Origin: Patescibacteria group bacterium
GTDB lineage: Bacteria; Patescibacteriota; Patescibacteriia; 2-12-FULL-60-25
NCBI GenBank assembly: GCA_049295615.1
Contig: JBAQQZ010000070.1
Location: 11,265 to 75,264, forward strand
Direction: 5' to 3'
Length of the DNA: 64,000 nucleotides
In this document: positions 6,911-57,669 of the stretch, piece after piece
Position numbering within the stretch: position 1 is the stretch's first letter
Layout of the letters: the number at the start of each line of letters is the position of its first letter
Made by a program: the position numbers and the translations under genes
Notes under the pieces: model-generated
Told to the model about the DNA's origin: nothing
The model's input: only the letters and a program-made list of their open reading frames with translations
Database searches by the model: none

Positions 6911-8203
6911 TTACGGCTCCAAACGGTTCAAAAGCCGAGGAAACGGGATGGTTTCGCGGACGTGATGGAGGCCGCAGATCCAGGCGACAAGACGCTCAAG
7001 CCCGAACCCAAACCCAGAATGCGGCACGGAGCCATATTGGCGCAAATCGAGGTACCACTTGAACGCGGCTTCGGGCAACTGGTGTTCTTTGATGCGCTCG
7101 AGGAGCGTGGCGTAATCATCTTCACGCTGCGAACCGCCGCTAATCTCACCGTACCCTTCAGGCGCAAGCAGGTCCGAATTCAAGACGCGGGTCGGGTCAG
7201 ACGGATCGCGCTTCATGTAGAACGCCTTCACGGCCGTGGGATATTTCTCGACGAAAATCGGCTTGTCATAGAGGTTCGTGAGCGTCGTTTCATCGTCCGC
7301 GCCCAAGTCATCCATCTCACCGATGTTGCTTCCCAGCTCTTTGAGCTTCGCGATCGCTTCGGCGTGCGTGATGCGGTAGAACGGTGCTTTCACGTTTTTC
7401 AGCGGTTCAACGTTGCGTTCGAGGATCTTCAATTCTTGCTCGCAGTTTTCCAGCACGCGCTGCACGATGAACGAGACAAGTTGCTCTTGGATTTCCATGT
7501 TCCCTTGATGTTCGACGAACGCGGCTTCGGCATCCATCATCCAGAATTCGATGAGGTGGCGGCGCGTCTTCGACTTCTCCGCACGGAAGACAGGACCAAA
7601 ATCAAAACAGCGGCCGACGGACGAGATTGCGGCTTCGAGATAGAGTTGGCCGGATTGCGTGAGGTAGGCTTTGCGGTCTTCAAAATAATCGACTTCGAAC
7701 AGTTCGGTCGTCCCTTCACAGGCATTGGGCGTGAAGATCGGCGAGTCGATCTTGATGTAGTCATGTTCACGCATCCAATCATATGTCGCCAGGATGATCT
7801 GGTTGCGCACGCGTTGGATCGCCCATTGCGACGGTGCACGCAGCCACAGGTGGCGGTTGTCGAGCAAAAAATCGGGCCCATGTTCCTTTTTGCCGATGGG
7901 ATATTCCGGCGCGAGCTGGATGATCTTGACGGACGTCGCCTGCAACTCGAACACGCCTTCTTGCTTGGGATGCTTGGACACGGTGCCCGTGACTTCGACA
8001 GATGACTCGATCGTCGCCGCTGTCGCTGCGGCCCAAGACGGTTCGTCCACGTTTTGTTTGGCGATGACGGCTTGGGTGAATCCCGACCCGTCACGGATTT
8101 GGAGGAACGCGATACTGCCCGATGACCGGACGTTATACGCCCAGCCTTTGACGGTGACCGTCGCGCCGACGTGGTCGCGGAACTTCGAAATCAGGGTATC
8201 CAT
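6911..8203 (-). CDS. asnS: Asparaginyl-tRNA synthetase
   Basis: FRAEKSKTRRHLIEFWMMDAEAAF and C-terminal GGSQRE...YGSVPHSGFGFGLERLVAWICGLHHVRETIPFPR match AsnRS signatures. Confidence 0.85.
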   Translation of the reverse strand: MDTLISKFRDHVGATVTVKGWAYNVRSSGSIAFLQIRDGSGFTQAVIAKQNVDEPSWAAATAATIESSVEVTGTVSKHPKQEGVFELQATSVKIIQLAPEYPIGKKEHGPDFLLDNRHLWLRAPSQWAIQRVRNQIILATYDWMREHDYIKIDSPIFTPNACEGTTELFEVDYFEDRKAYLTQSGQLYLEAAISSVGRCFDFGPVFRAEKSKTRRHLIEFWMMDAEAAFVEHQGNMEIQEQLVSFIVQRVLENCEQELKILERNVEPLKNVKAPFYRITHAEAIAKLKELGSNIGEMDDLGADDETTLTNLYDKPIFVEKYPTAVKAFYMKRDPSDPTRVLNSDLLAPEGYGEISGGSQREDDYATLLERIKEHQLPEAAFKWYLDLRQYGSVPHSGFGFGLERLVAWICGLHHVRETIPFPRLLNRLEP

Positions 8204-8284
8204 AGGAGAACCTATCTTACGGAAACAGCGCTATTTTGACAATAAAAGAGCCCGCCTCGACTGGTGTCGAGACGGGCAGACAGG

Positions 8285-9265
8285 CTAACGGTTGGAACGG
8301 CGCCGCGGCAGGCGGTCAAACCAGCTCCAGAGCTCGCGCTCGGAAGGGATGATGTCGCGGATGATCACCGAACGCCGCGCATACTCATCCACCACGAAGA
8401 AGAACGGCTTGCCATTTACCAGTACTTCACGCACATCGGTGCGCGGCATGCCGCGCAAGCGACAGGCGACCTGCTCCTCGTCACGGATCGAACGGGCATC
8501 ACGGAGCGTCTCCCACGCCCATTGGATGAGCAAGCCGAGCACGCGGTTCGACTCAGACCGGAGCAGTTGCTGGGTGACCGGTTCGCGATCCCGCAACGCC
8601 GCATTCACGCAGGCGCGGAGCTGTTCGACCAGGTGCAGGCGCAGCGCCTCACGGCCCTTGGTACGGCTCGATTGCTGGACCGACAGGGCCAAGCACATGA
8701 CACGTTCGCATTCGCGCACGTGTGGCGCGCGGAACTTCTCGATCGCCCGGTTGGCGGTTTCGAGGTACACCGTATCGTCTACGGGAAGTGGAATCTCGGC
8801 CTCGACCTTCCGCGCGACAGGAGCCGTCGGGTTCGGCTTGGGACGCTTCGCCTCATGATGGGCCGAACGCATGACCGGACGCCGTGCAGCCGCAGCCTGG
8901 GTCGCCTTGGTGATGACCCGCAATGCTCCCTTGCGGAACGCCTTTGCCGCCTTGTCCACTTGCGCAGGCGTAACGGCCTGCGCGGCAGGGATCGGCGGTG
9001 AGTGGGGCCTCTGGCGTTCCTCATGGAATGCGTCTTCCGTCCACATGAACGGAGGTTCGGCTACCGGCGCGACCGCGATCGATGCCGGCGGAACGGGAGG
9101 GACAACAGCCTCGATTTCTGACGGGGGCGGCGGACGACGGAACGGCAGCACGACTCCCATCTTCGGATAACGCCTCGGAACAGTACGAAAATCGACCTTG
9201 GGCCCGGGATGCCGGTCCAAACGGAGCGCGACAGCAGAAGGACGGTGCATGACCACCTCTGGCAA
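8285..9265 (-). CDS. Hypothetical protein, Pro-rich N-terminus and Arg-rich helical C-domain
   Basis: 326-aa ORF followed by a hairpin plus T-run at ~8245-8284 (minus). No motif recognised. Confidence 0.45.
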   Translation of the reverse strand: MPEVVMHRPSAVALRLDRHPGPKVDFRTVPRRYPKMGVVLPFRRPPPPSEIEAVVPPVPPASIAVAPVAEPPFMWTEDAFHEERQRPHSPPIPAAQAVTPAQVDKAAKAFRKGALRVITKATQAAAARRPVMRSAHHEAKRPKPNPTAPVARKVEAEIPLPVDDTVYLETANRAIEKFRAPHVRECERVMCLALSVQQSSRTKGREALRLHLVEQLRACVNAALRDREPVTQQLLRSESNRVLGLLIQWAWETLRDARSIRDEEQVACRLRGMPRTDVREVLVNGKPFFFVVDEYARRSVIIRDIIPSERELWSWFDRLPRRRSNR

Positions 9266-10425: not shown

Positions 10426-11205
10426 TTAGCGGTCCGGCCACGGCGTCAACAGTTCATACCCCTCATCGGTGACTGCGATGGTGACTTCAAAATGCGCGGC
10501 CAGCGAATGGTCCCGCGTCGCAATCGTCCAACCGTCGTCCTTCATGACGACGCGCCAATCGCCGAGCGTGACCATCGGTTCGATGGCGAGCACCATTCCG
10601 GTTTCGAGCCGTACTTTTGGTGCACGTGGGTCGCGGAAGTTCGGGACTTGCGGTTCTTCATGCACGGCGTGCCCGACGCCATGGCCAACAAGATCTTTCA
10701 CGATGCCGTATTTTTTTGGTTTGAGGTAATCTTCAACAGCTGCGCCGATGTCAGAAATCCACGCACCGGCTTTGACCGCGCTGATGCCGCGGACGAGGGA
10801 TTCGCGGGTGTCTTCGACCAGCTCGCGTGTCTTGTTCGGCACGTCACCGACAATGACGGTCGTTGCCATGTCGGTCGCGAGCTTCTTGTACCAACAGCCG
10901 ATGTCGAGTCCGACGATGTCGCCGTCGCTAACCGTGCGCGGCGGGATGGCCAACCCGTGGACGACTTCGTCGTTGATCGAGATGCAAAGTGTCGACGGGA
11001 ACGGCGGGTCATTGGCAGAAATGCGGTAGCCCAAGAATGACGGCACGCCGCCAGCGTCTTCGATGACTTTACGTGCGATGGCATCGATATCCGCTGTCGA
11101 GGCTCCAGCGACGCAGGCGGCCGCAGATGCACGCAGTGCGCGCGACAAAATCTCTCCGCCTTCGCGCAGGTCCTTGATCTCTTGTGGCGTCTTCTTCAGC
11201 GACAT
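10426..11205 (-). CDS. map: Methionine aminopeptidase type I
   Basis: Pita-bread metal ligand context (DIVGLDIG, VGHGVGHAVHEEP, LAIEPM, AHFEVT). Confidence 0.9.
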   Translation of the reverse strand: MSLKKTPQEIKDLREGGEILSRALRASAAACVAGASTADIDAIARKVIEDAGGVPSFLGYRISANDPPFPSTLCISINDEVVHGLAIPPRTVSDGDIVGLDIGCWYKKLATDMATTVIVGDVPNKTRELVEDTRESLVRGISAVKAGAWISDIGAAVEDYLKPKKYGIVKDLVGHGVGHAVHEEPQVPNFRDPRAPKVRLETGMVLAIEPMVTLGDWRVVMKDDGWTIATRDHSLAAHFEVTIAVTDEGYELLTPWPDR

Positions 11206-11216
11206 ATTGATACAGC

Positions 11217-11873
11217 CTAGCTGGTAAATCCTAATTTGGCCATCTTCTTGATGAGGTCGTCAAACACATATGGGATGGGCTGTTCACCGTTCACCGTGAG
11301 CACGGCACCGTGTTGGCGATAGTAGGTCACGAGTGGCTCGGTCATGAAATGAAACGTCGCGAGGCGCTTGCGGATGGCTTCCTCGGTGTCATCAGCGCGG
11401 GCTTCGAGCTTGCCGCCGCACACGCTGCAAATGCCCGGTTTGGCCGGCGGCACGTCACGCAGATGGAAGGTCGTCTTACAACGGACGCACTGCCTTCGGC
11501 CGAGCAAGCGGCGGACCGCTTCGGCATCGGCGATCTTGAGGTAGATCGCCAGGTTGATTTTCAGTACGCGGTCGAGCTGGATGGCTTGCTCGACGTTGCG
11601 CGGGTAGCCGTCGAGGATGAAACCGCGCGACAAGTCCAGCTTCTTCATGCGCTGGGTGAGCACGGCATTCACGACTTCATCCGGCGCCAACAAACCGCTG
11701 TCAACATAGCTTTGGAGGATCGCGCCGAGTGGTGTTTTTTCGCGGATCTCGTCGCGAAGCAAATCTCCTGCGCCGATCAGCGGGATGTCAAAACGTTCGG
11801 CAAGCAGTTGGCCTTGCGTCCCCTTTCCGCAACCTTGTGGGCCGAATAAAACGGCGTGGATGTGTTTCTTCAT
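11217..11873 (-). CDS. adk: Adenylate kinase with Zn-binding lid
   Basis: P-loop GPQGCGKGTQ. Lid CVRCKTTFH...CSVCGGKL. Confidence 0.92.
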   Translation of the reverse strand: MKKHIHAVLFGPQGCGKGTQGQLLAERFDIPLIGAGDLLRDEIREKTPLGAILQSYVDSGLLAPDEVVNAVLTQRMKKLDLSRGFILDGYPRNVEQAIQLDRVLKINLAIYLKIADAEAVRRLLGRRQCVRCKTTFHLRDVPPAKPGICSVCGGKLEARADDTEEAIRKRLATFHFMTEPLVTYYRQHGAVLTVNGEQPIPYVFDDLIKKMAKLGFTS

Positions 11874-35112: not shown

Positions 35113-36108
35113 TTACGCGGCCTCGTGGAAATCCATGCCCGACATCTTCTGCAAGAACTCGACTTCGCGCGTCTTGGCTTCGAGCGCCGCGTTGAGTTCC
35201 TCGAGTTCGTTCGTCAGGTAATGGAGCTGGTCCGCATAGCCCTTGTCGCGCTTTTCGGCATGCGTCTGTTCTTCAAACTGCTTTGCCTGGCGCAAGTACT
35301 CATCACGCAAGTTGGCTTTTTCTATGTCCAACTCAAAGATGTTGGGGTAGTTGACGGGCTGCTCGAGTTTCTTGGCAGTCGCCAATGCGGCGTTCTTTTT
35401 GAATTCGCCGGTCGAAGCCGTGCCCTTCAAATGCATCATCACGACTTTCAGTTGCCCAGAAAGCTGGCTCCACTTTTTGCGCAACTCACGCAATTCCTCT
35501 TCCTTGTCTTCAGCCTTCGGCTCGGGTTCGTTGTTCGCTTCAACAAGTTCTTCGGATTGCGTATCGAAGTACGGGTTATTGACGAGGTTCTCGCTGCCTT
35601 CGATGCGAGCTTCAATGGCTTCGTCAGAAATCGTGGCCTCGTAGACTTCCTTGCTCAATTGGTCCACGCGTTTGTGTTCCATGTTGATCAAGGCCAGCTT
35701 CTCCGCAAAAATCTGCGCGACTTTTGACTTGGGCAAGCCGCTCGCAAGCATCTCATCACGTTCACCGACGAGATCATCAAATCCATTGCTAAGCTCTTCC
35801 AGCTTCGCGCTGATGTAATGGCTCGCTTCGTTCAGCGTGATGAACTGCTCATCGGGCTTGAACGGGAGGATACGGCCAGGCAAACGCTCTTTCTTGTTTG
35901 GAGTTTTTACGTTGAACTCTGGGCCGCCTAAACCCATGCTCTTCTCGAGGTCTTTGACGGTTTTCCCGCCCTTGGACTCTTTCTTCTTTGAACCGCCACC
36001 AAGGCCCAACTGTTGCTCGGCCATCTTTCCAGGCATGCCAACGCGACCAGTCGGACGCTTAGGAGGCAGATCTTGCTTTGGCATGGATTCGCTGCGGAAT
36101 CGGCGCAT
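35113..36108 (-). CDS. Hypothetical Glu/Lys-rich coiled-coil protein
   Basis: 331-aa ORF. Start uncertain (ATG at 36108 or 36084). Confidence 0.5.
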   Translation of the reverse strand: MRRFRSESMPKQDLPPKRPTGRVGMPGKMAEQQLGLGGGSKKKESKGGKTVKDLEKSMGLGGPEFNVKTPNKKERLPGRILPFKPDEQFITLNEASHYISAKLEELSNGFDDLVGERDEMLASGLPKSKVAQIFAEKLALINMEHKRVDQLSKEVYEATISDEAIEARIEGSENLVNNPYFDTQSEELVEANNEPEPKAEDKEEELRELRKKWSQLSGQLKVVMMHLKGTASTGEFKKNAALATAKKLEQPVNYPNIFELDIEKANLRDEYLRQAKQFEEQTHAEKRDKGYADQLHYLTNELEELNAALEAKTREVEFLQKMSGMDFHEAA

Positions 36109-36986: not shown

Positions 36987-37505
36987 CTACCGAACCTCTT
37001 CGAGAAGATGCGGGTCACGCATGGCTTGCTCGACGGAATGCAAAAACTCCTCCAGCTTGTGGCGCTGCCAGCATGGGCCGAGCGCAACACGGTCCGGCTT
37101 TGCGCCATGGCGCCGGAATTCGAGAGACTCAATCCCCTTGTCGAGGTTAAAGCCTTGGTAAACGAGCAACATCGCATCGAGCTCGGCCAATGGGATGTGG
37201 CGCTTGCGCGAGAATGCGGCCGTGAACTCGACGGCGTGGTCAACCAGGCGCAAGCGCTCGGTGATGCTGTCAAAAAAATACAGCCACGCGAGGAACGCCA
37301 AGGCAAACATGATGTCGCGCTGGAGCGCCGTGACGGTCATGACTTGCGACGCGCCAAACGCCGCGACCGTGATCACGCAACACAACGCAAATACGATCAC
37401 ACCGCCGAGCGTCAACAGTTCGGCGCGTGCTTCACGCAGGCAGACGGTTTCCGTCTCTTCGCGTTTTGCACGGCGTGGCGCATATGCACCCATGGTTTCA
37501 GGCAT
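36987..37505 (-). CDS. Hypothetical 2-TM membrane protein
   Basis: Start trimmed to the ATG at 37503-37505 because 37529-37562 holds the hup terminator hairpin. Confidence 0.45.
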   Translation of the reverse strand: MPETMGAYAPRRAKREETETVCLREARAELLTLGGVIVFALCCVITVAAFGASQVMTVTALQRDIMFALAFLAWLYFFDSITERLRLVDHAVEFTAAFSRKRHIPLAELDAMLLVYQGFNLDKGIESLEFRRHGAKPDRVALGPCWQRHKLEEFLHSVEQAMRDPHLLEEVR

Positions 37506-37528
37506 AGAAAGATGGTATCGGACAACGC

Positions 37529-37562
37529 CAAAAAAAAGTAGGGGCACGACATGTCGTGCCCC
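37529..37562 (-). terminator. Intrinsic terminator downstream of hup
   Basis: ggggcacgac-atg-tcgtgcccc perfect hairpin followed on the minus strand by a T8 run. Confidence 0.7.
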
Positions 37563-38697: not shown

Positions 38698-38773
38698 CGG
38701 GCTATGGCGAAGTTGGTATCGCGCTTGCATGGGGTGCAAGAGGCCCTGGGTTCGAGTCCCAGTAGCCCGACCA
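38698..38773 (+). tRNA. tRNA-Pro (anticodon GGG)
   Basis: CGGGCTA acceptor, anticodon loop ATGGGGT, TTCGAGT T-loop, CCA encoded. 76 nt. Confidence 0.9.
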
Positions 38774-38810
38774 AACAAAAAGATCCGCGGATGCGGGTCT
38801 TTTTGTTTAT
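38774..38810 (+). terminator. Intrinsic terminator after tRNA-Pro(GGG)
   Basis: aaacaaaaa-gatccgc-ggat-gcgggtc-tttttgttt. Confidence 0.65.
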
Positions 38811-39280
38811 CTCCCAAAAATTTCTTTCAAGCTCATCCGCACGTCCGCAAACGTCGGAAGTTCAAACGTTTCTTCATACGTAAACCAACCGATGTCATGC
38901 GACTCATTCGAGTCATGCACGACATCGGCTTGTGGCACTTCGACGAGGTACACATGGTCGATATGAAAATGTTCCGGCTCGTCTCCAGATGTTTGGATAT
39001 GTTCTTCTAACAGGTAGGCTGGCATCGGCAAGAAAAGCGCGTGGTCGCCTGAATCTTGCGGCGCGGACAAATACGACGAGACATCAATCCCCGCTTCTTC
39101 GTTGACTTCGCGGATAGCGGCTTGGTACGGGTTCTCGCCGAACTCGACATGGCCGCCGGGCGGCAGCCATTTATCAAAACGCCTGTGGTGCACGAGCAGT
39201 GCGCGACGCGGTTCGTTGCTCGACATCACATACACCGTGGCGGTCAAATGTTTTTCTCCGGGTTGTGGAACTTGCCTCAT
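38807..39280 (-). CDS. NUDIX hydrolase
   Basis: Nudix box GGHVEFGENPYQAAIREVNEEAGI. Start trimmed to MRQVPQ. Confidence 0.85.
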   Translation of the reverse strand: MRQVPQPGEKHLTATVYVMSSNEPRRALLVHHRRFDKWLPPGGHVEFGENPYQAAIREVNEEAGIDVSSYLSAPQDSGDHALFLPMPAYLLEEHIQTSGDEPEHFHIDHVYLVEVPQADVVHDSNESHDIGWFTYEETFELPTFADVRMSLKEIFGR

Positions 39281-39414
39281 AAAAAAATAAATAAGAGCCT
39301 CTGCAAAAGCAAAGCCTCTCCTAACTGCGAGTCCGACGAGCAAGCGCAGCACGCGACCGGAGCGTAGATCCCTCTGAGGGATCGCAGCGCAGAGTCGCAA
39401 GTGCGAGCATCTGA

Positions 39415-39650: not shown

Positions 39651-39688
39651 GATAGAAAAAGCCCGCCTCGATACACGTCAAGGCGGGC
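39651..39688 (-). terminator. Intrinsic terminator downstream of the RSH-like gene
   Basis: Minus strand GCCCGCC-ttgacgtgtatcga-GGCGGGC followed by TTTTTCTATC. Confidence 0.7.
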
Positions 39689-39691
39689 AGG

Positions 39692-40945
39692 TCACGACCA
39701 GATGCGGGCCAATTGGAGGCGATGCAGCTGTTCGCGAAGTTCGGCGTCATCCCAATCAAGGTAGAACGGCGCCGGGAAGAGTTTGGGAAAGAGCTTGGTG
39801 CAGTTGGTGTCGAGCTTGTAGAGCGCGTGGTTCTCACGGCCACGCGAGCAGCGCTCGTTGATCCAGTCGGGTGCCAGCATGAACTGGAGCTCGAAGAACC
39901 GGCCGAACAACGAGACGTTGTATTTCCAGGCACGGAACTCGCTGGCCGAGCTGGTGTTGGCCGAATCGAGCACGCCCGCGTGCGAGATGTTGGACGCTTC
40001 GCCGAACACCGTGCCCGGCACGCACACGAGTTTCCTCCGCATGAGGTCGACGCCATCGAGCAAGTCTTGCTCGCAAAAGAACACGAACTTCGCGCCGAGC
40101 AAGTCGGTCAGCGAGCGCGTGTCGCGCTGGTTCTTGCGCAGCAGCTTGAGTGGCGCATCGGCTTTGACGCGCATCTCATAGTAGACCGGGATGTGGCCAC
40201 GCGCGACGCGGAAAAAACGGACGTCGGGATAGAGGACGAGCCGCTCTTCAGTCGAATGGCCATCCGGCACGTTTTCGTTCCGCGAGACGTCATGGCTCTT
40301 TACGCGGAACAGGTCCTCGGGGTTGAGCTCGGCCACGATGCGGAAACTGTCGCTCTTACCGGGCACGAAGAAATGGCGTTTCAACTCATGGTCGAATTCC
40401 GCCATGTCACGGTCGAGGTCATCCGGCGCGTCGCCGTGCAAGCGCATTTCAAAGTAGAGCTGCGCCAGCGTCAGCTGCCGCCGAGCCTCAAAACGCGTGC
40501 GGCGCGACAAGATGTCCGCGCCCGGCATGCAGCACAGCCGCAAGAGCTCGAATGGGTCCTGCTCGCTCTCGACGTCGGACGTCATGAGGAGGCGCAAGCG
40601 GTGCGGTTCCGTGAAGCACTCTTGGATAGTGCGCCGGATGCAGGCATGCGCATCTTTGACCGACGCCGCGAACCACGCGCAATGCGTTTCGTACTCCGCA
40701 GGATCGAGACGGTACGTCTTGCGGTAGAACTCGTAGACGGCCCGCCAACTCGCCGCACTCTCGTGCGCAGCGAACGATTCTGCGGGGCCGTCCCAACCGC
40801 GCCACGCCGCGTTTCGCGCAACCGCGATCGCCTTGAGGAATACCTGGAACCGGACGCGTTCGCCGTGCGTGATCGAATGCGTGTCGTCCGGTTCGGGCAG
40901 CAGGTTGGGATAATGCTGGTAGAAATCTTCGCGTTCAGGAGTCAT
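39692..40945 (-). CDS. Protein with C-terminal RelA/SpoT-type (RSH) nucleotidyltransferase domain and an unrecognised ~250-aa N-terminal domain
   Basis: In order: RVKADAPLKLLRK, DLLGAKFVF, EFRAWKYNV, FELQFML, ENHALYK. The ATG overlaps the stop of the upstream small ORF (ATGA). Confidence 0.6.
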   Translation of the reverse strand: MTPEREDFYQHYPNLLPEPDDTHSITHGERVRFQVFLKAIAVARNAAWRGWDGPAESFAAHESAASWRAVYEFYRKTYRLDPAEYETHCAWFAASVKDAHACIRRTIQECFTEPHRLRLLMTSDVESEQDPFELLRLCCMPGADILSRRTRFEARRQLTLAQLYFEMRLHGDAPDDLDRDMAEFDHELKRHFFVPGKSDSFRIVAELNPEDLFRVKSHDVSRNENVPDGHSTEERLVLYPDVRFFRVARGHIPVYYEMRVKADAPLKLLRKNQRDTRSLTDLLGAKFVFFCEQDLLDGVDLMRRKLVCVPGTVFGEASNISHAGVLDSANTSSASEFRAWKYNVSLFGRFFELQFMLAPDWINERCSRGRENHALYKLDTNCTKLFPKLFPAPFYLDWDDAELREQLHRLQLARIWS

Positions 40946-41139
40946 CCGCCTCCCCCACCCGGCTCGCACTTCTCGAGGTCGAGCACGCTGTCGCGCAACT
41001 GGCTGCAGAACACGCAGTCCTTGCGCGGGATGCCGTGTTCGCACTGCGCATCCATTGGACTAACCCGCAGCGACGGGATTTCGGGGCTCGTCGGGCGGTC
41101 GCCATCCATCTCATTCTCATTCGAATTGTCTTCTGCCAT
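40942..41139 (-). CDS. Small acidic Cys-containing protein (65 aa), translationally coupled to the RSH-like gene
   Basis: AAGGAG SD 6 nt upstream of the ATG. CEHGIPRKDCVFC...C pattern. Poly-Gly tail codons contain GGAGG for the next gene. Confidence 0.5.
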   Translation of the reverse strand: MAEDNSNENEMDGDRPTSPEIPSLRVSPMDAQCEHGIPRKDCVFCSQLRDSVLDLEKCEPGGGGG

Positions 41140-41231
41140 GTCCAACTCCTTGTGTAAAAGGGCGGACTGCCACCTTAAGAACAAAACACCGCGCTGGTCA
41201 AGCCCGGTGCTTTCTCCTGATTGTTGAAATT

Positions 41232-41819
41232 TTAGGCTTGGAACCGCTTCTCGTCGTACTGGATCGGGTCAAGGGCGGCGTTCACTTTTTGGATTTCGTT
41301 GGCTGCGAACCAGATCGGCATCTCGTTCTTGGCTTCGTCGACCGTACCCGAGGCGTGGATCAGGTTGCGCAACGGGCGGCTTTGCGCGTTTGAGAGCGCA
41401 TAGGTGTCGAGCGAGAAATCACCGCGGATGGTGCCGGGCGCGGATGACGCAGGTTCCGTCGCGCCGACGATCTTGCGTGTGAGTGATACGGATTGTTCGC
41501 CCTCGAGGATCAGCGCAACGACGGGGGCAGAAACCAGGAACTCGACCAAGCCGTTTTTGATGGACGTCCCATAGGCCACGTGGTCAGGATAGGGGAACGG
41601 CTGGTTGTTGGCTTCGTACTTGGCTTTGGCCTTGTCGTAGACGGCTTTCATCCATTCTTCGGTCAACGCATAGTGGCGGTCCGCCTGGTCGCGTGTGGGC
41701 AAGACCATCTTGAGGGCCACGATCTTGAGGCCGACGCGCTCCAATCGGGCGAGGATTTCACCGATCAAGCTGCGCTGGACGCCGTCCGGTTTCACCAATA
41801 CGAGGGTTTGTTCAGTCAT
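41232..41819 (-). CDS. ndk: Nucleoside diphosphate kinase (long form with ~45-aa insertion)
   Basis: LVLVKPDGVQRSLIGEILARLERVGLKIVALKM ... NLIHASG (active-site His). Confidence 0.85.
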   Translation of the reverse strand: MTEQTLVLVKPDGVQRSLIGEILARLERVGLKIVALKMVLPTRDQADRHYALTEEWMKAVYDKAKAKYEANNQPFPYPDHVAYGTSIKNGLVEFLVSAPVVALILEGEQSVSLTRKIVGATEPASSAPGTIRGDFSLDTYALSNAQSRPLRNLIHASGTVDEAKNEMPIWFAANEIQKVNAALDPIQYDEKRFQA

Positions 41820-41946
41820 AGGCGTTTTTGTTGGCAGGAGCGTACCAGATGGCCGATCCGAAAGCAATGGTTTGCCCTCTTGTCAAATCATCCTATTTTT
41901 GCTATCCTTTCGTTATAAATCTTGAGAACTCCACAGAACCTCCGCT

Positions 41947-57594: not shown

Positions 57595-57669
57595 AGGCCC
57601 GTAGCTCAGTGGTAGAGCGGTCGTCTTATACACGACTGGTCGCTGGTTCGATCCCAGCCGGGCCTACCA
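57595..57669 (+). tRNA. tRNA-Ile (anticodon TAT), ileX-like body
   Basis: AGGCCCGTAGCTCAGTGGTAGAGCGGTCGTCTTATACACGACTGGTCGCTGGTTCGATCCCAGCCGGGCCTACCA. Perfect 5-bp anticodon stem GTCGT/ACGAC, loop CTTATAC. Confidence 0.85.

Follow-up and report, generated by a model that had tools for sequence, protein, structure and literature searches.

A deeply divergent RelA/SpoT homologue with a novel N-terminal domain in Patescibacteria

RelA/SpoT homologue (RSH) enzymes are master regulators of bacterial stress physiology. We analyzed a 64,000-nucleotide stretch from a Patescibacteria group bacterium (GenBank assembly GCA_049295615.1, contig JBAQQZ010000070.1, positions 11,265 to 75,264), called the window below, in which a 65-amino-acid open reading frame (ORF) overlaps a 417-amino-acid ORF on the minus strand. 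What kind of protein does the larger ORF encode, and does the pair form a toxin-antitoxin or defence cassette, as a first-pass annotation had proposed? We found that the 417-amino-acid ORF is a deeply divergent RSH subfamily with a new architecture, in which a novel N-terminal domain precedes the RSH domain. Our best reading, with a probability of roughly 0.6, is that it is an unclassified, lineage-specific RSH pyrophosphokinase making an alarmone-type nucleotide for an endogenous role, with the 65-residue mini-protein as an optional regulator and the product of a downstream Nudix gene as a candidate degrader. The large ORF and its two domains are as follows.

39692..40945, minus strand: 417-amino-acid ORF, ATG at 40945..40943.
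40514..40945, minus strand: all-helical N-terminal domain of the 417-amino-acid protein, about residues 1-144, from AlphaFold2 (AF2) models.
39692..40513, minus strand: RSH synthetase-type pyrophosphokinase domain, about residues 145-417, plus the stop codon, from profile searches, hhalign and Foldseek.

The ORF list also offers a longer GTG-41044 start for the large ORF. ATG-40945 was preferred because homologues start at the same place (P0002 begins MTVDDDFLQHFPNV). An identical protein is on record as P0001, from a Patescibacteria group bacterium metagenome-assembled genome (MAG).

The RSH identity of this protein was visible only to deep methods. In single-sequence library scans, with a cut-off of E ≤ 1 or 0.1, the protein alone gave no Pfam match at E ≤ 1 and none in NCBIfam, PADLOC or PHROGs. 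A profile built from 29 family sequences found no match among the PDB sequences. An exhaustive profile search then placed its relatives in at least 359 clusters at 50% identity in metagenomes. When a 150-member family profile was searched against the PDB, it matched B. subtilis Rel (E = 2.4e-7), M. tuberculosis Rel (1.7e-6) and RelA (3.6e-6), and the Rel/RelA matches together spanned E = 2.4e-7 to 2e-4. RelP and RelQ were weaker than the long RSH proteins in this search (E ~0.03), and no toxic small alarmone synthetase (toxSAS) was among the PDB sequence matches. The check by hidden Markov model (HMM) proposed in the first-pass annotation thus failed for the window protein alone and succeeded for the family profile.

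Two further comparisons gave the same answer. Local hhalign of the family C-terminal domain against E. coli RelA, E. coli SpoT and B. subtilis Rel gave 95.3% probability (E = 2.3e-8, 119 columns). Sub-threshold matches to PF04607 appeared in 24 of 116 distant relatives, the best at 3.8e-5, and no other Pfam family recurred; the PF04607 gathering score was reached by no scanned member, whether the window protein or a relative. The HMMER alignment also extends upstream into the Rel “RYLNPQQYYRIV” linker segment, which matches the family “DPxxxxRV”. This alignment hints that the family descends from a long-RSH-type synthetase.

The AF2 model of the 417-amino-acid protein had a mean predicted local distance difference test (pLDDT) score of 88 and a predicted TM score (pTM) of 0.86. 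Its top 30 Foldseek matches in the PDB were all RSH proteins (Rel, RelP, RelQ, SpoT, RelA and CapRel), with probabilities up to 1.0, so the structure-prediction check came out in favor of the RSH assignment. RelP and RelQ had probabilities of 0.93-0.98, and CapRel stood at 20th place or lower. In the BFVD viral structure library, phage RelA/SpoT and Tas1 proteins were among the matches. The model contains an extra beta-hairpin that precedes the core sheet. On these four independent lines (the fold, the family profile, hhalign and the weak PF04607 matches), the C-terminal ~270 amino acids are a genuine, very divergent RelA/SpoT-type synthetase domain.

The hhalign register placed the catalytic motifs on the canonical ones. 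R259-x-K261...K267 aligned with RPKHIYSIWRK, D281-L-L-G284 with D-V-R-A-V-R, E352-L-Q354 with vEiQIRT and H373-A-L-Y376-K377 with aaHwkYK, so that the RxK...K, DxxG, ExQ and HxxYK motifs previously picked by eye proved to be in register. The key residues of the domain are R259, K261, K267, D281, G284, P310-G311, N330, E352, Q354, H373, Y376 and K377. Three of them, K261, D281 and E352, are invariant in all 150 relatives. R259 (137 of 150), K267 (139), H373 (138) and Y376 (146), together with N330, are at least 90% conserved, and G284 (105), Q354 (111) and Lys or Arg at 377 (130) are less so. The mean column identity of the same alignment is only ~14%. We argue for retained catalysis because, against this background, none of the 150 relatives has changed the catalytic Asp, Glu or Lys. 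From this strong constraint on the catalytic residues, the 417-amino-acid protein is predicted to be very likely an active pyrophosphokinase. The same invariance stands against the idea that the protein is an inactive RSH-fold pseudoenzyme acting only as a scaffold or nucleotide-binding regulator. Extreme divergence, to the point that the window protein has no Pfam match, speaks for that idea, which we regard as very improbable.

Most likely, the enzyme would move the beta,gamma-pyrophosphate of ATP to the 3'-OH of a purine nucleotide, and the product would be a (p)ppGpp- or (pp)pApp-like alarmone. The domain has kept its full catalytic set, Q354, H373, Y376 and K377 included. R259, K261 and K267 would bind the ATP phosphates, and D281 and E352 would serve Mg2+ binding and catalysis. 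Its role would be endogenous signalling or a nucleotide-pool function rather than that of a mobile toxin.

The acceptor side of the active site is less regular. The equivalent of the NGYxSxH acceptor motif (the “G-loop”) is N330-T-S-S. The first-pass annotation had put this motif at EFRAWKYNV; the true equivalent lies a few residues upstream, and the Tyr and His are not conserved in the 417-amino-acid protein. Across the 150 family members, the Tyr position varies, with His in 47, Phe in 17, Ser in 13 and Tyr in 13. The loop at residues 315-337 has pLDDT < 50, appears disordered and is the sole low-confidence part of the AF2 model. The identity of the acceptor is therefore uncertain, because the loop is divergent, with Tyr and His lost in the clade, and is disordered in the model.

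These features bear on a different proposal, that of a housekeeping RSH-fold pyrophosphokinase whose acceptor is not GDP or GTP. Candidate acceptors would be an adenine nucleotide, the 3' end of an RNA or tRNA, or a nucleoside monophosphate, in which case the product would be pGpp-like. The helical bundle at the N-terminus would then serve to recognize the substrate or a partner. The invariant donor-side and catalytic residues next to an acceptor site with no Tyr or His in the clade and a variable Tyr position, the low-confidence loop and the novel N-terminal domain all fit this proposal, as do the nucleotide-handling neighbors found in various genomes (nucleoside diphosphate kinase (NDK), Nudix, CYTH, HIT and cytidylate kinase). 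On the other hand, N330 is kept in 139 and S333 in 128 of the 150 relatives, about half of the family still has His or an aromatic residue where the Tyr would be, and each acceptor named is a candidate only. We consider a non-canonical acceptor unlikely.

In the N-terminal domain, residues 1 to ~144 form long helices in the AF2 model, and a separate model of residues 1-192 had a pLDDT of 86. When this second model was compared with the PDB by Foldseek, a FAT-type helical bundle ranked first (E = 0.56, probability 0.15), and HD domains were absent from the matches. Distant relatives do not conserve the first ~100 residues and begin to match at about profile position 110. A degenerate HD domain, as in RelA, was suspected because the best matches were Rel fragments with hydrolase and synthetase domains (HD+SYN) and because the domain size fits. 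This pseudo-HD was rejected as undetectable: Foldseek returned no HD match, hhalign of the domain against the N-terminal halves of RelA/SpoT gave 2% probability, and no conserved His-Asp motif is present in the domain. At the other end, the 417-amino-acid protein has no TGS or ACT Pfam match, and its sequence stops ~40 residues past HxxYK. The reading by eye that HD, TGS and ACT regions are absent is thus borne out by Foldseek, hhalign and Pfam, and the N-terminal domain that matched nothing recognizable then still has no fold or profile match. We therefore call this predicted helical domain of ~140 amino acids novel.

Some relatives differ at their ends. P0003 and P0010 carry N-terminal extensions of ~50 residues with C-x4-C-x-C (e.g. 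RPGCKGRDCKCWKDE), and a similar extension lies at L001:5001-5150. In some relatives these extensions come on top of the separate upstream Cys mini-protein. P0159 (728 amino acids) is a long family member with extra regions beyond the RSH-like part.

The features around the large ORF in the window are listed here.

41232..41867, minus strand: ndk, nucleoside diphosphate kinase (211 amino acids as listed), Pfam PF00334, E = 3e-39.
41146..41151, minus strand: AAGGAG Shine-Dalgarno sequence of the small ORF, 6-nt spacing to the ATG, by sequence inspection.
40942..41139, minus strand: 65-amino-acid acidic ORF with the motif C-x-H-G-x5-C-x2-C, ATG at 41139 and TGA at 40944..40942.
40949..40953, minus strand: GGAGG Shine-Dalgarno sequence of the 417-amino-acid ORF, within poly-Gly codons, 3-nt spacing to the ATG.
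39661..39688, minus strand: intrinsic-terminator-like hairpin just past the stop of the 417-amino-acid ORF, with an 11-pair stem (8 G-C), a 6-nt loop and a TTTTTCT tail.
38807..39400, minus strand: Nudix hydrolase (197 amino acids as listed), Pfam PF00293, E = 1.3e-16.
38698..38773: tRNA-Pro(GGG), downstream of the Nudix gene.

Sequence inspection confirmed the layout of the two ORFs as first described, including their coordinates, both Shine-Dalgarno sites and the ATGA overlap, in which the stop of the 65-amino-acid ORF and the start of the 417-amino-acid ORF share 4 nt. The dedicated terminator is present as the 11-pair hairpin with its T-run (39688..39661), and the Nudix gene is indeed the next gene downstream, with tRNA-Pro nearby. 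The proximity of this tRNA had been taken as a distinguishing feature; it shows no sign of an integration site. A G+C-rich hairpin also lies at 41191-41210, within the 92 nt that separate ndk from the small ORF. It was called by the scan on the plus strand only, and its minus-strand copy, read from the sequence, is followed by a T-rich stretch. This hairpin may partly insulate the small-ORF/RSH-like pair against transcription from ndk.

Is this arrangement kept in other genomes? The reduced-alignment locus scans gave 8 genome loci and 5 metagenome loci, and for this reason the context statistics are confined to 16 distinct genomes in which the upstream sequence could be examined. In 15 of the 16, ndk immediately precedes the RSH-like gene and has the same orientation. 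An L32-NusB-RNase III block usually points away from ndk, and an HU gene and a LOG-family gene follow downstream in several genomes. The window shows the same order: L32, NusB and RNase III lie upstream in divergent orientation, and genes for a CDP-alcohol phosphatidyltransferase, HU and a LOG-family protein lie downstream. The exception is L002/L003 (P0016), where the gene follows a trypsin-like protease gene and tRNA-Ile(TAT) instead of ndk; on its downstream side are a 174-amino-acid gene, a pseudouridine synthase (PF00849), a cytidylate kinase and ribosomal protein L19.

All 8 genome loci are in Patescibacteria-type MAGs. Close relatives occur in Uhrbacteria-type genomes, L018 was placed in Roizmanbacteria by a flanking AspRS ~85% identical to Roizmanbacteria proteins, and all sampled members appear to belong to Patescibacteria. 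No relatives turned up in a scan of viral contigs. In the window and the fetched loci, which are loci and not whole genomes, no canonical RelA/SpoT was present. The gene is chromosomal and specific to the Patescibacteria lineage, where it is fixed after ndk in a housekeeping neighborhood.

Several other features of this neighborhood were recorded. The NDK of the window clade is long, at 193-226 amino acids where the Pfam NDK model has 135 positions, and it matches the model in two stretches, which suggests an insertion of ~40 amino acids or an N-terminal extension. Genes for a CYTH protein (triphosphate tunnel metalloenzyme) and an inositol-monophosphatase-family protein lie a few kb downstream in two genomes (L001:9452-10054, 10568-11383; L006:6756-7376, 7456-8367). 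In L002, the RSH-like gene has a HIT-family gene on its upstream side and the cytidylate kinase gene on its downstream side. By inspection, without statistics, a nucleotide- or phosphate-handling neighborhood recurs. Two ORFs of the conserved neighborhood in the window have no Pfam match: 35113-36108 (minus strand), encoding 331 amino acids, is Lys/Glu-rich and looks low-complexity, and 36987-37547 (minus strand), encoding 186 amino acids, is hydrophobic by eye and possibly a membrane protein. The tRNA-Ile genes with anticodon TAT are at 57595-57669 (plus strand) in the window and at L002:4687-4761. A UAU-anticodon tRNA-Ile is unusual in bacteria, where AUA is normally decoded by a lysidine-modified CAU tRNA.

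The small ORF is distributed differently from the enzyme. The 65-amino-acid protein has no match in Pfam, NCBIfam, PADLOC or PHROGs. Homologues are recognizable in 6 of the 16 distinct genomes (the window, L001, L006, L016, L024/L026 and L025). Outside the window, in L001/L011, L006, L016, L024/L026 and L025, they stand directly upstream of the RSH-like gene and are 93-106 amino acids long as aligned, and in L001 and L006 the small ORF runs up to or into the called start of that gene. Their core reads PT-x-P...C-x-H-G-x(4-5)-C-x-x-C-x-LLEHGG(R/K)YS, with the second Cys replaced by Tyr in L025. The window copy is the shortest; it has lost both ends of the core and is without the LLEHGGRYS tail. 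The C/H/C/C pattern suggests a putative small metal knuckle.

No recognizable homologue was seen in L002, L005, L007, L009, L010 or L020. L020 is the closest relative whose upstream region is on the contig (67% identity), and its gap between ndk and the RSH-like gene is only 92 bp. In L008 and L017 an acidic ORF lies upstream whose relatedness is doubtful, and no other conserved small neighbor gene was seen across the loci. The small ORF is not an obligatory antitoxin, because it is missing in most genomes, close relatives included. The description of a coupled partner holds in the window and its subclade and breaks down across the homologues, most of which, L020 among them, do not keep it. 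We infer that the small ORF is a real, dispensable, fast-evolving partner that is translationally coupled to the enzyme. Its Cys/His product would most likely be a stoichiometric regulator.

These results bear directly on the question of a cassette. A toxSAS-like toxin-antitoxin or anti-phage module would consist of an RSH-like toxin and the 65-amino-acid antitoxin, with growth arrest through overproduction of (pp)pApp or ppGpp or through pyrophosphorylation of tRNA-CCA ends. In genomes without the small ORF, the N-terminal domain would be a fused cis-antitoxin or sensor, as in CapRel. Several observations agree with such a module: the coupled small ORF is directly upstream and conserved as a protein in the subclade, the enzyme diverges fast relative to NDK, its acceptor loop is divergent, an additional uncharacterised domain is fused to the synthetase, and CapRel and phage RelA/SpoT or Tas1 are among the structural matches. 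However, the gene sits in a core-gene neighborhood, fixed after ndk in 15 of 16 genomes, and the best sequence matches are long Rel/RelA, with toxSAS missing from the PDB sequence matches and CapRel low in the fold ranking. The toxSAS or defence reading of the first-pass annotation is unsupported because the ndk locus is fixed, there is no viral-contig, PADLOC or PHROG signal, and the small ORF is not conserved, being found in six genomes and missing from L020. We judge it decidedly improbable. A stand-alone RSH with a small overlapping ORF is, as a caution, insufficient for a toxSAS call.

We then considered the Nudix gene. In L007 and L023 the RSH-like gene is immediately followed by an orthologue of it (66-67% identity), which gives adjacency in 3 genomes with the window; L020 and most other genomes have no downstream orthologue. 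In the distant relative P0176 (742 amino acids, L018:1843-4071), an RSH-like region is followed by ~130 residues without a Pfam match and, at the C-terminus, by a Nudix domain (Pfam E = 2.6e-7). The window Nudix belongs to no specific subfamily, as all its NCBIfam matches are far under the cut-offs, and a shared subfamily with the fused Nudix of P0176 was not detectable (BLASTP E = 0.5). The Nudix pyrophosphatase Ndx8 of Thermus thermophilus is reported, as cited in PMC3153485, to degrade ppGpp (Ooga 2009). By analogy, the Nudix is a candidate hydrolase of the enzyme product, a plausible but weak link, and in this subclade it would be the likeliest degrader. The proposed partnership thus has some support in the three adjacent genes and the fusion, and does not extend to the remaining genomes, which mostly lack the Nudix.

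A wider idea joins these parts into a cryptic alarmone system specific to Patescibacteria, linked to NDK, with a synthetase that is invisible to all RSH HMMs applied until now and a Nudix in place of an HD hydrolase. The enzyme would perhaps be the sole alarmone synthetase of these reduced genomes, or the maker of a non-canonical 3'-pyrophosphorylated nucleotide, and the N-terminal bundle and the optional Cys/His mini-protein would be sensory inputs. We offer this idea as speculative, possible but doubtful.

Several points weigh against our preferred reading of a lineage-specific alarmone synthetase. The acceptor side is non-canonical: in the window clade, Ser replaces the guanine-stacking Tyr of NGYxSxH and the His has no aligned counterpart or is lost, and product and acceptor are assigned by inference only. 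The Foldseek E-values are marginal (1.5e-3 to 0.5), and the target-normalised TM scores to small alarmone synthetase (SAS) structures are only 0.38-0.45. A terminator stands between the RSH-like gene and the Nudix gene in the window. The very distant relatives L018 and L019 have no ndk adjacency, and this adjacency could be mere inherited gene order within one clade. The RSH-like protein diverges faster than NDK (37-79% against 66-84% identity), and fast divergence is also shown by conflict genes. Its identity does not track that of NDK (Spearman -0.63). This correlation had been tried as a test of vertical inheritance; the negative result was not used as support, and the test was set aside because the NDK identity range is too narrow to inform.

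RSH classification is HMM-based (Atkinson 2011; Jimmy 2020), as are the censuses PMC3153485 and PMC7229694, and the Pfam and NCBIfam models tested here miss the 417-amino-acid family entirely. A search of PMC7229694 turned up neither Patescibacteria nor candidate phyla. In the literature searched, we found no paper linking alarmone signalling to Patescibacteria and no description of this family. Patescibacteria are a huge, almost uncultured radiation, and if the enzyme is active, it would offer a handle on nutrient-state sensing in ultra-small, host-dependent bacteria. It would also be a natural case in which the acceptor loop of a synthetase core has been re-modelled and a new regulatory domain added.

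How does the 417-amino-acid protein compare with the known systems? The long RSH enzymes (Rel, RelA and SpoT; B. subtilis Rel PDB 8acu/6yxa, S. equisimilis Rel 1vj7) are its best profile and Foldseek matches, and all five of their synthetase motifs are in register with it. In contrast to the long RSH enzymes, which have an HD hydrolase and TGS, helical, ZFD and ACT/RRM regions, it has no HD fold or profile match and ends at residue 417 without the C-terminal regions. The long enzymes keep the acceptor-loop Tyr and His, whereas the 417-amino-acid protein does not.

The SAS enzymes (RelQ, RelP and RelV) resemble it in being stand-alone synthetases without hydrolase or ribosome-binding domains, encoded by chromosomal, apparently non-mobile genes, and its fold matches RelP and RelQ. 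It may work like an SAS in function. However, SAS proteins are single-domain proteins of ~200-250 amino acids that are recognized by RSH/SAS HMMs. The 417-amino-acid protein is about twice that size, with its helical N-terminal domain of ~140 amino acids, and is not recognized by the Pfam or NCBIfam models. Unlike SAS, its family appears confined to Patescibacteria and is nearer to long RSH in sequence.

With the toxSAS proteins (FaRel, FaRel2, PhRel, PhRel2 and CapRel; PMC7229694) it shares an RSH synthetase fold outside the long RSH group and, in a subset of genomes, a small overlapping neighbor gene; with CapRel it shares an extra domain fused to the synthetase. It differs from toxSAS in that the partner gene is not conserved, the core-genome locus is fixed and there is no phage or plasmid association, and the pseudo-ZFD of CapRel is unrelated to its N-terminal domain. 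As with the Nudix (p)ppGpp pyrophosphatases, of which Ndx8 is an example, a Nudix is here too genomically linked to an alarmone-type synthetase. Taken by class, the protein departs from long RSH in the HD and C-terminal regions, from classical SAS in size and HMM recognition, and from toxSAS in having neither a conserved cognate antitoxin gene nor a patchy or mobile distribution. The earlier suggestion of an undescribed subfamily has held: this is a new, deeply divergent subfamily of RSH.

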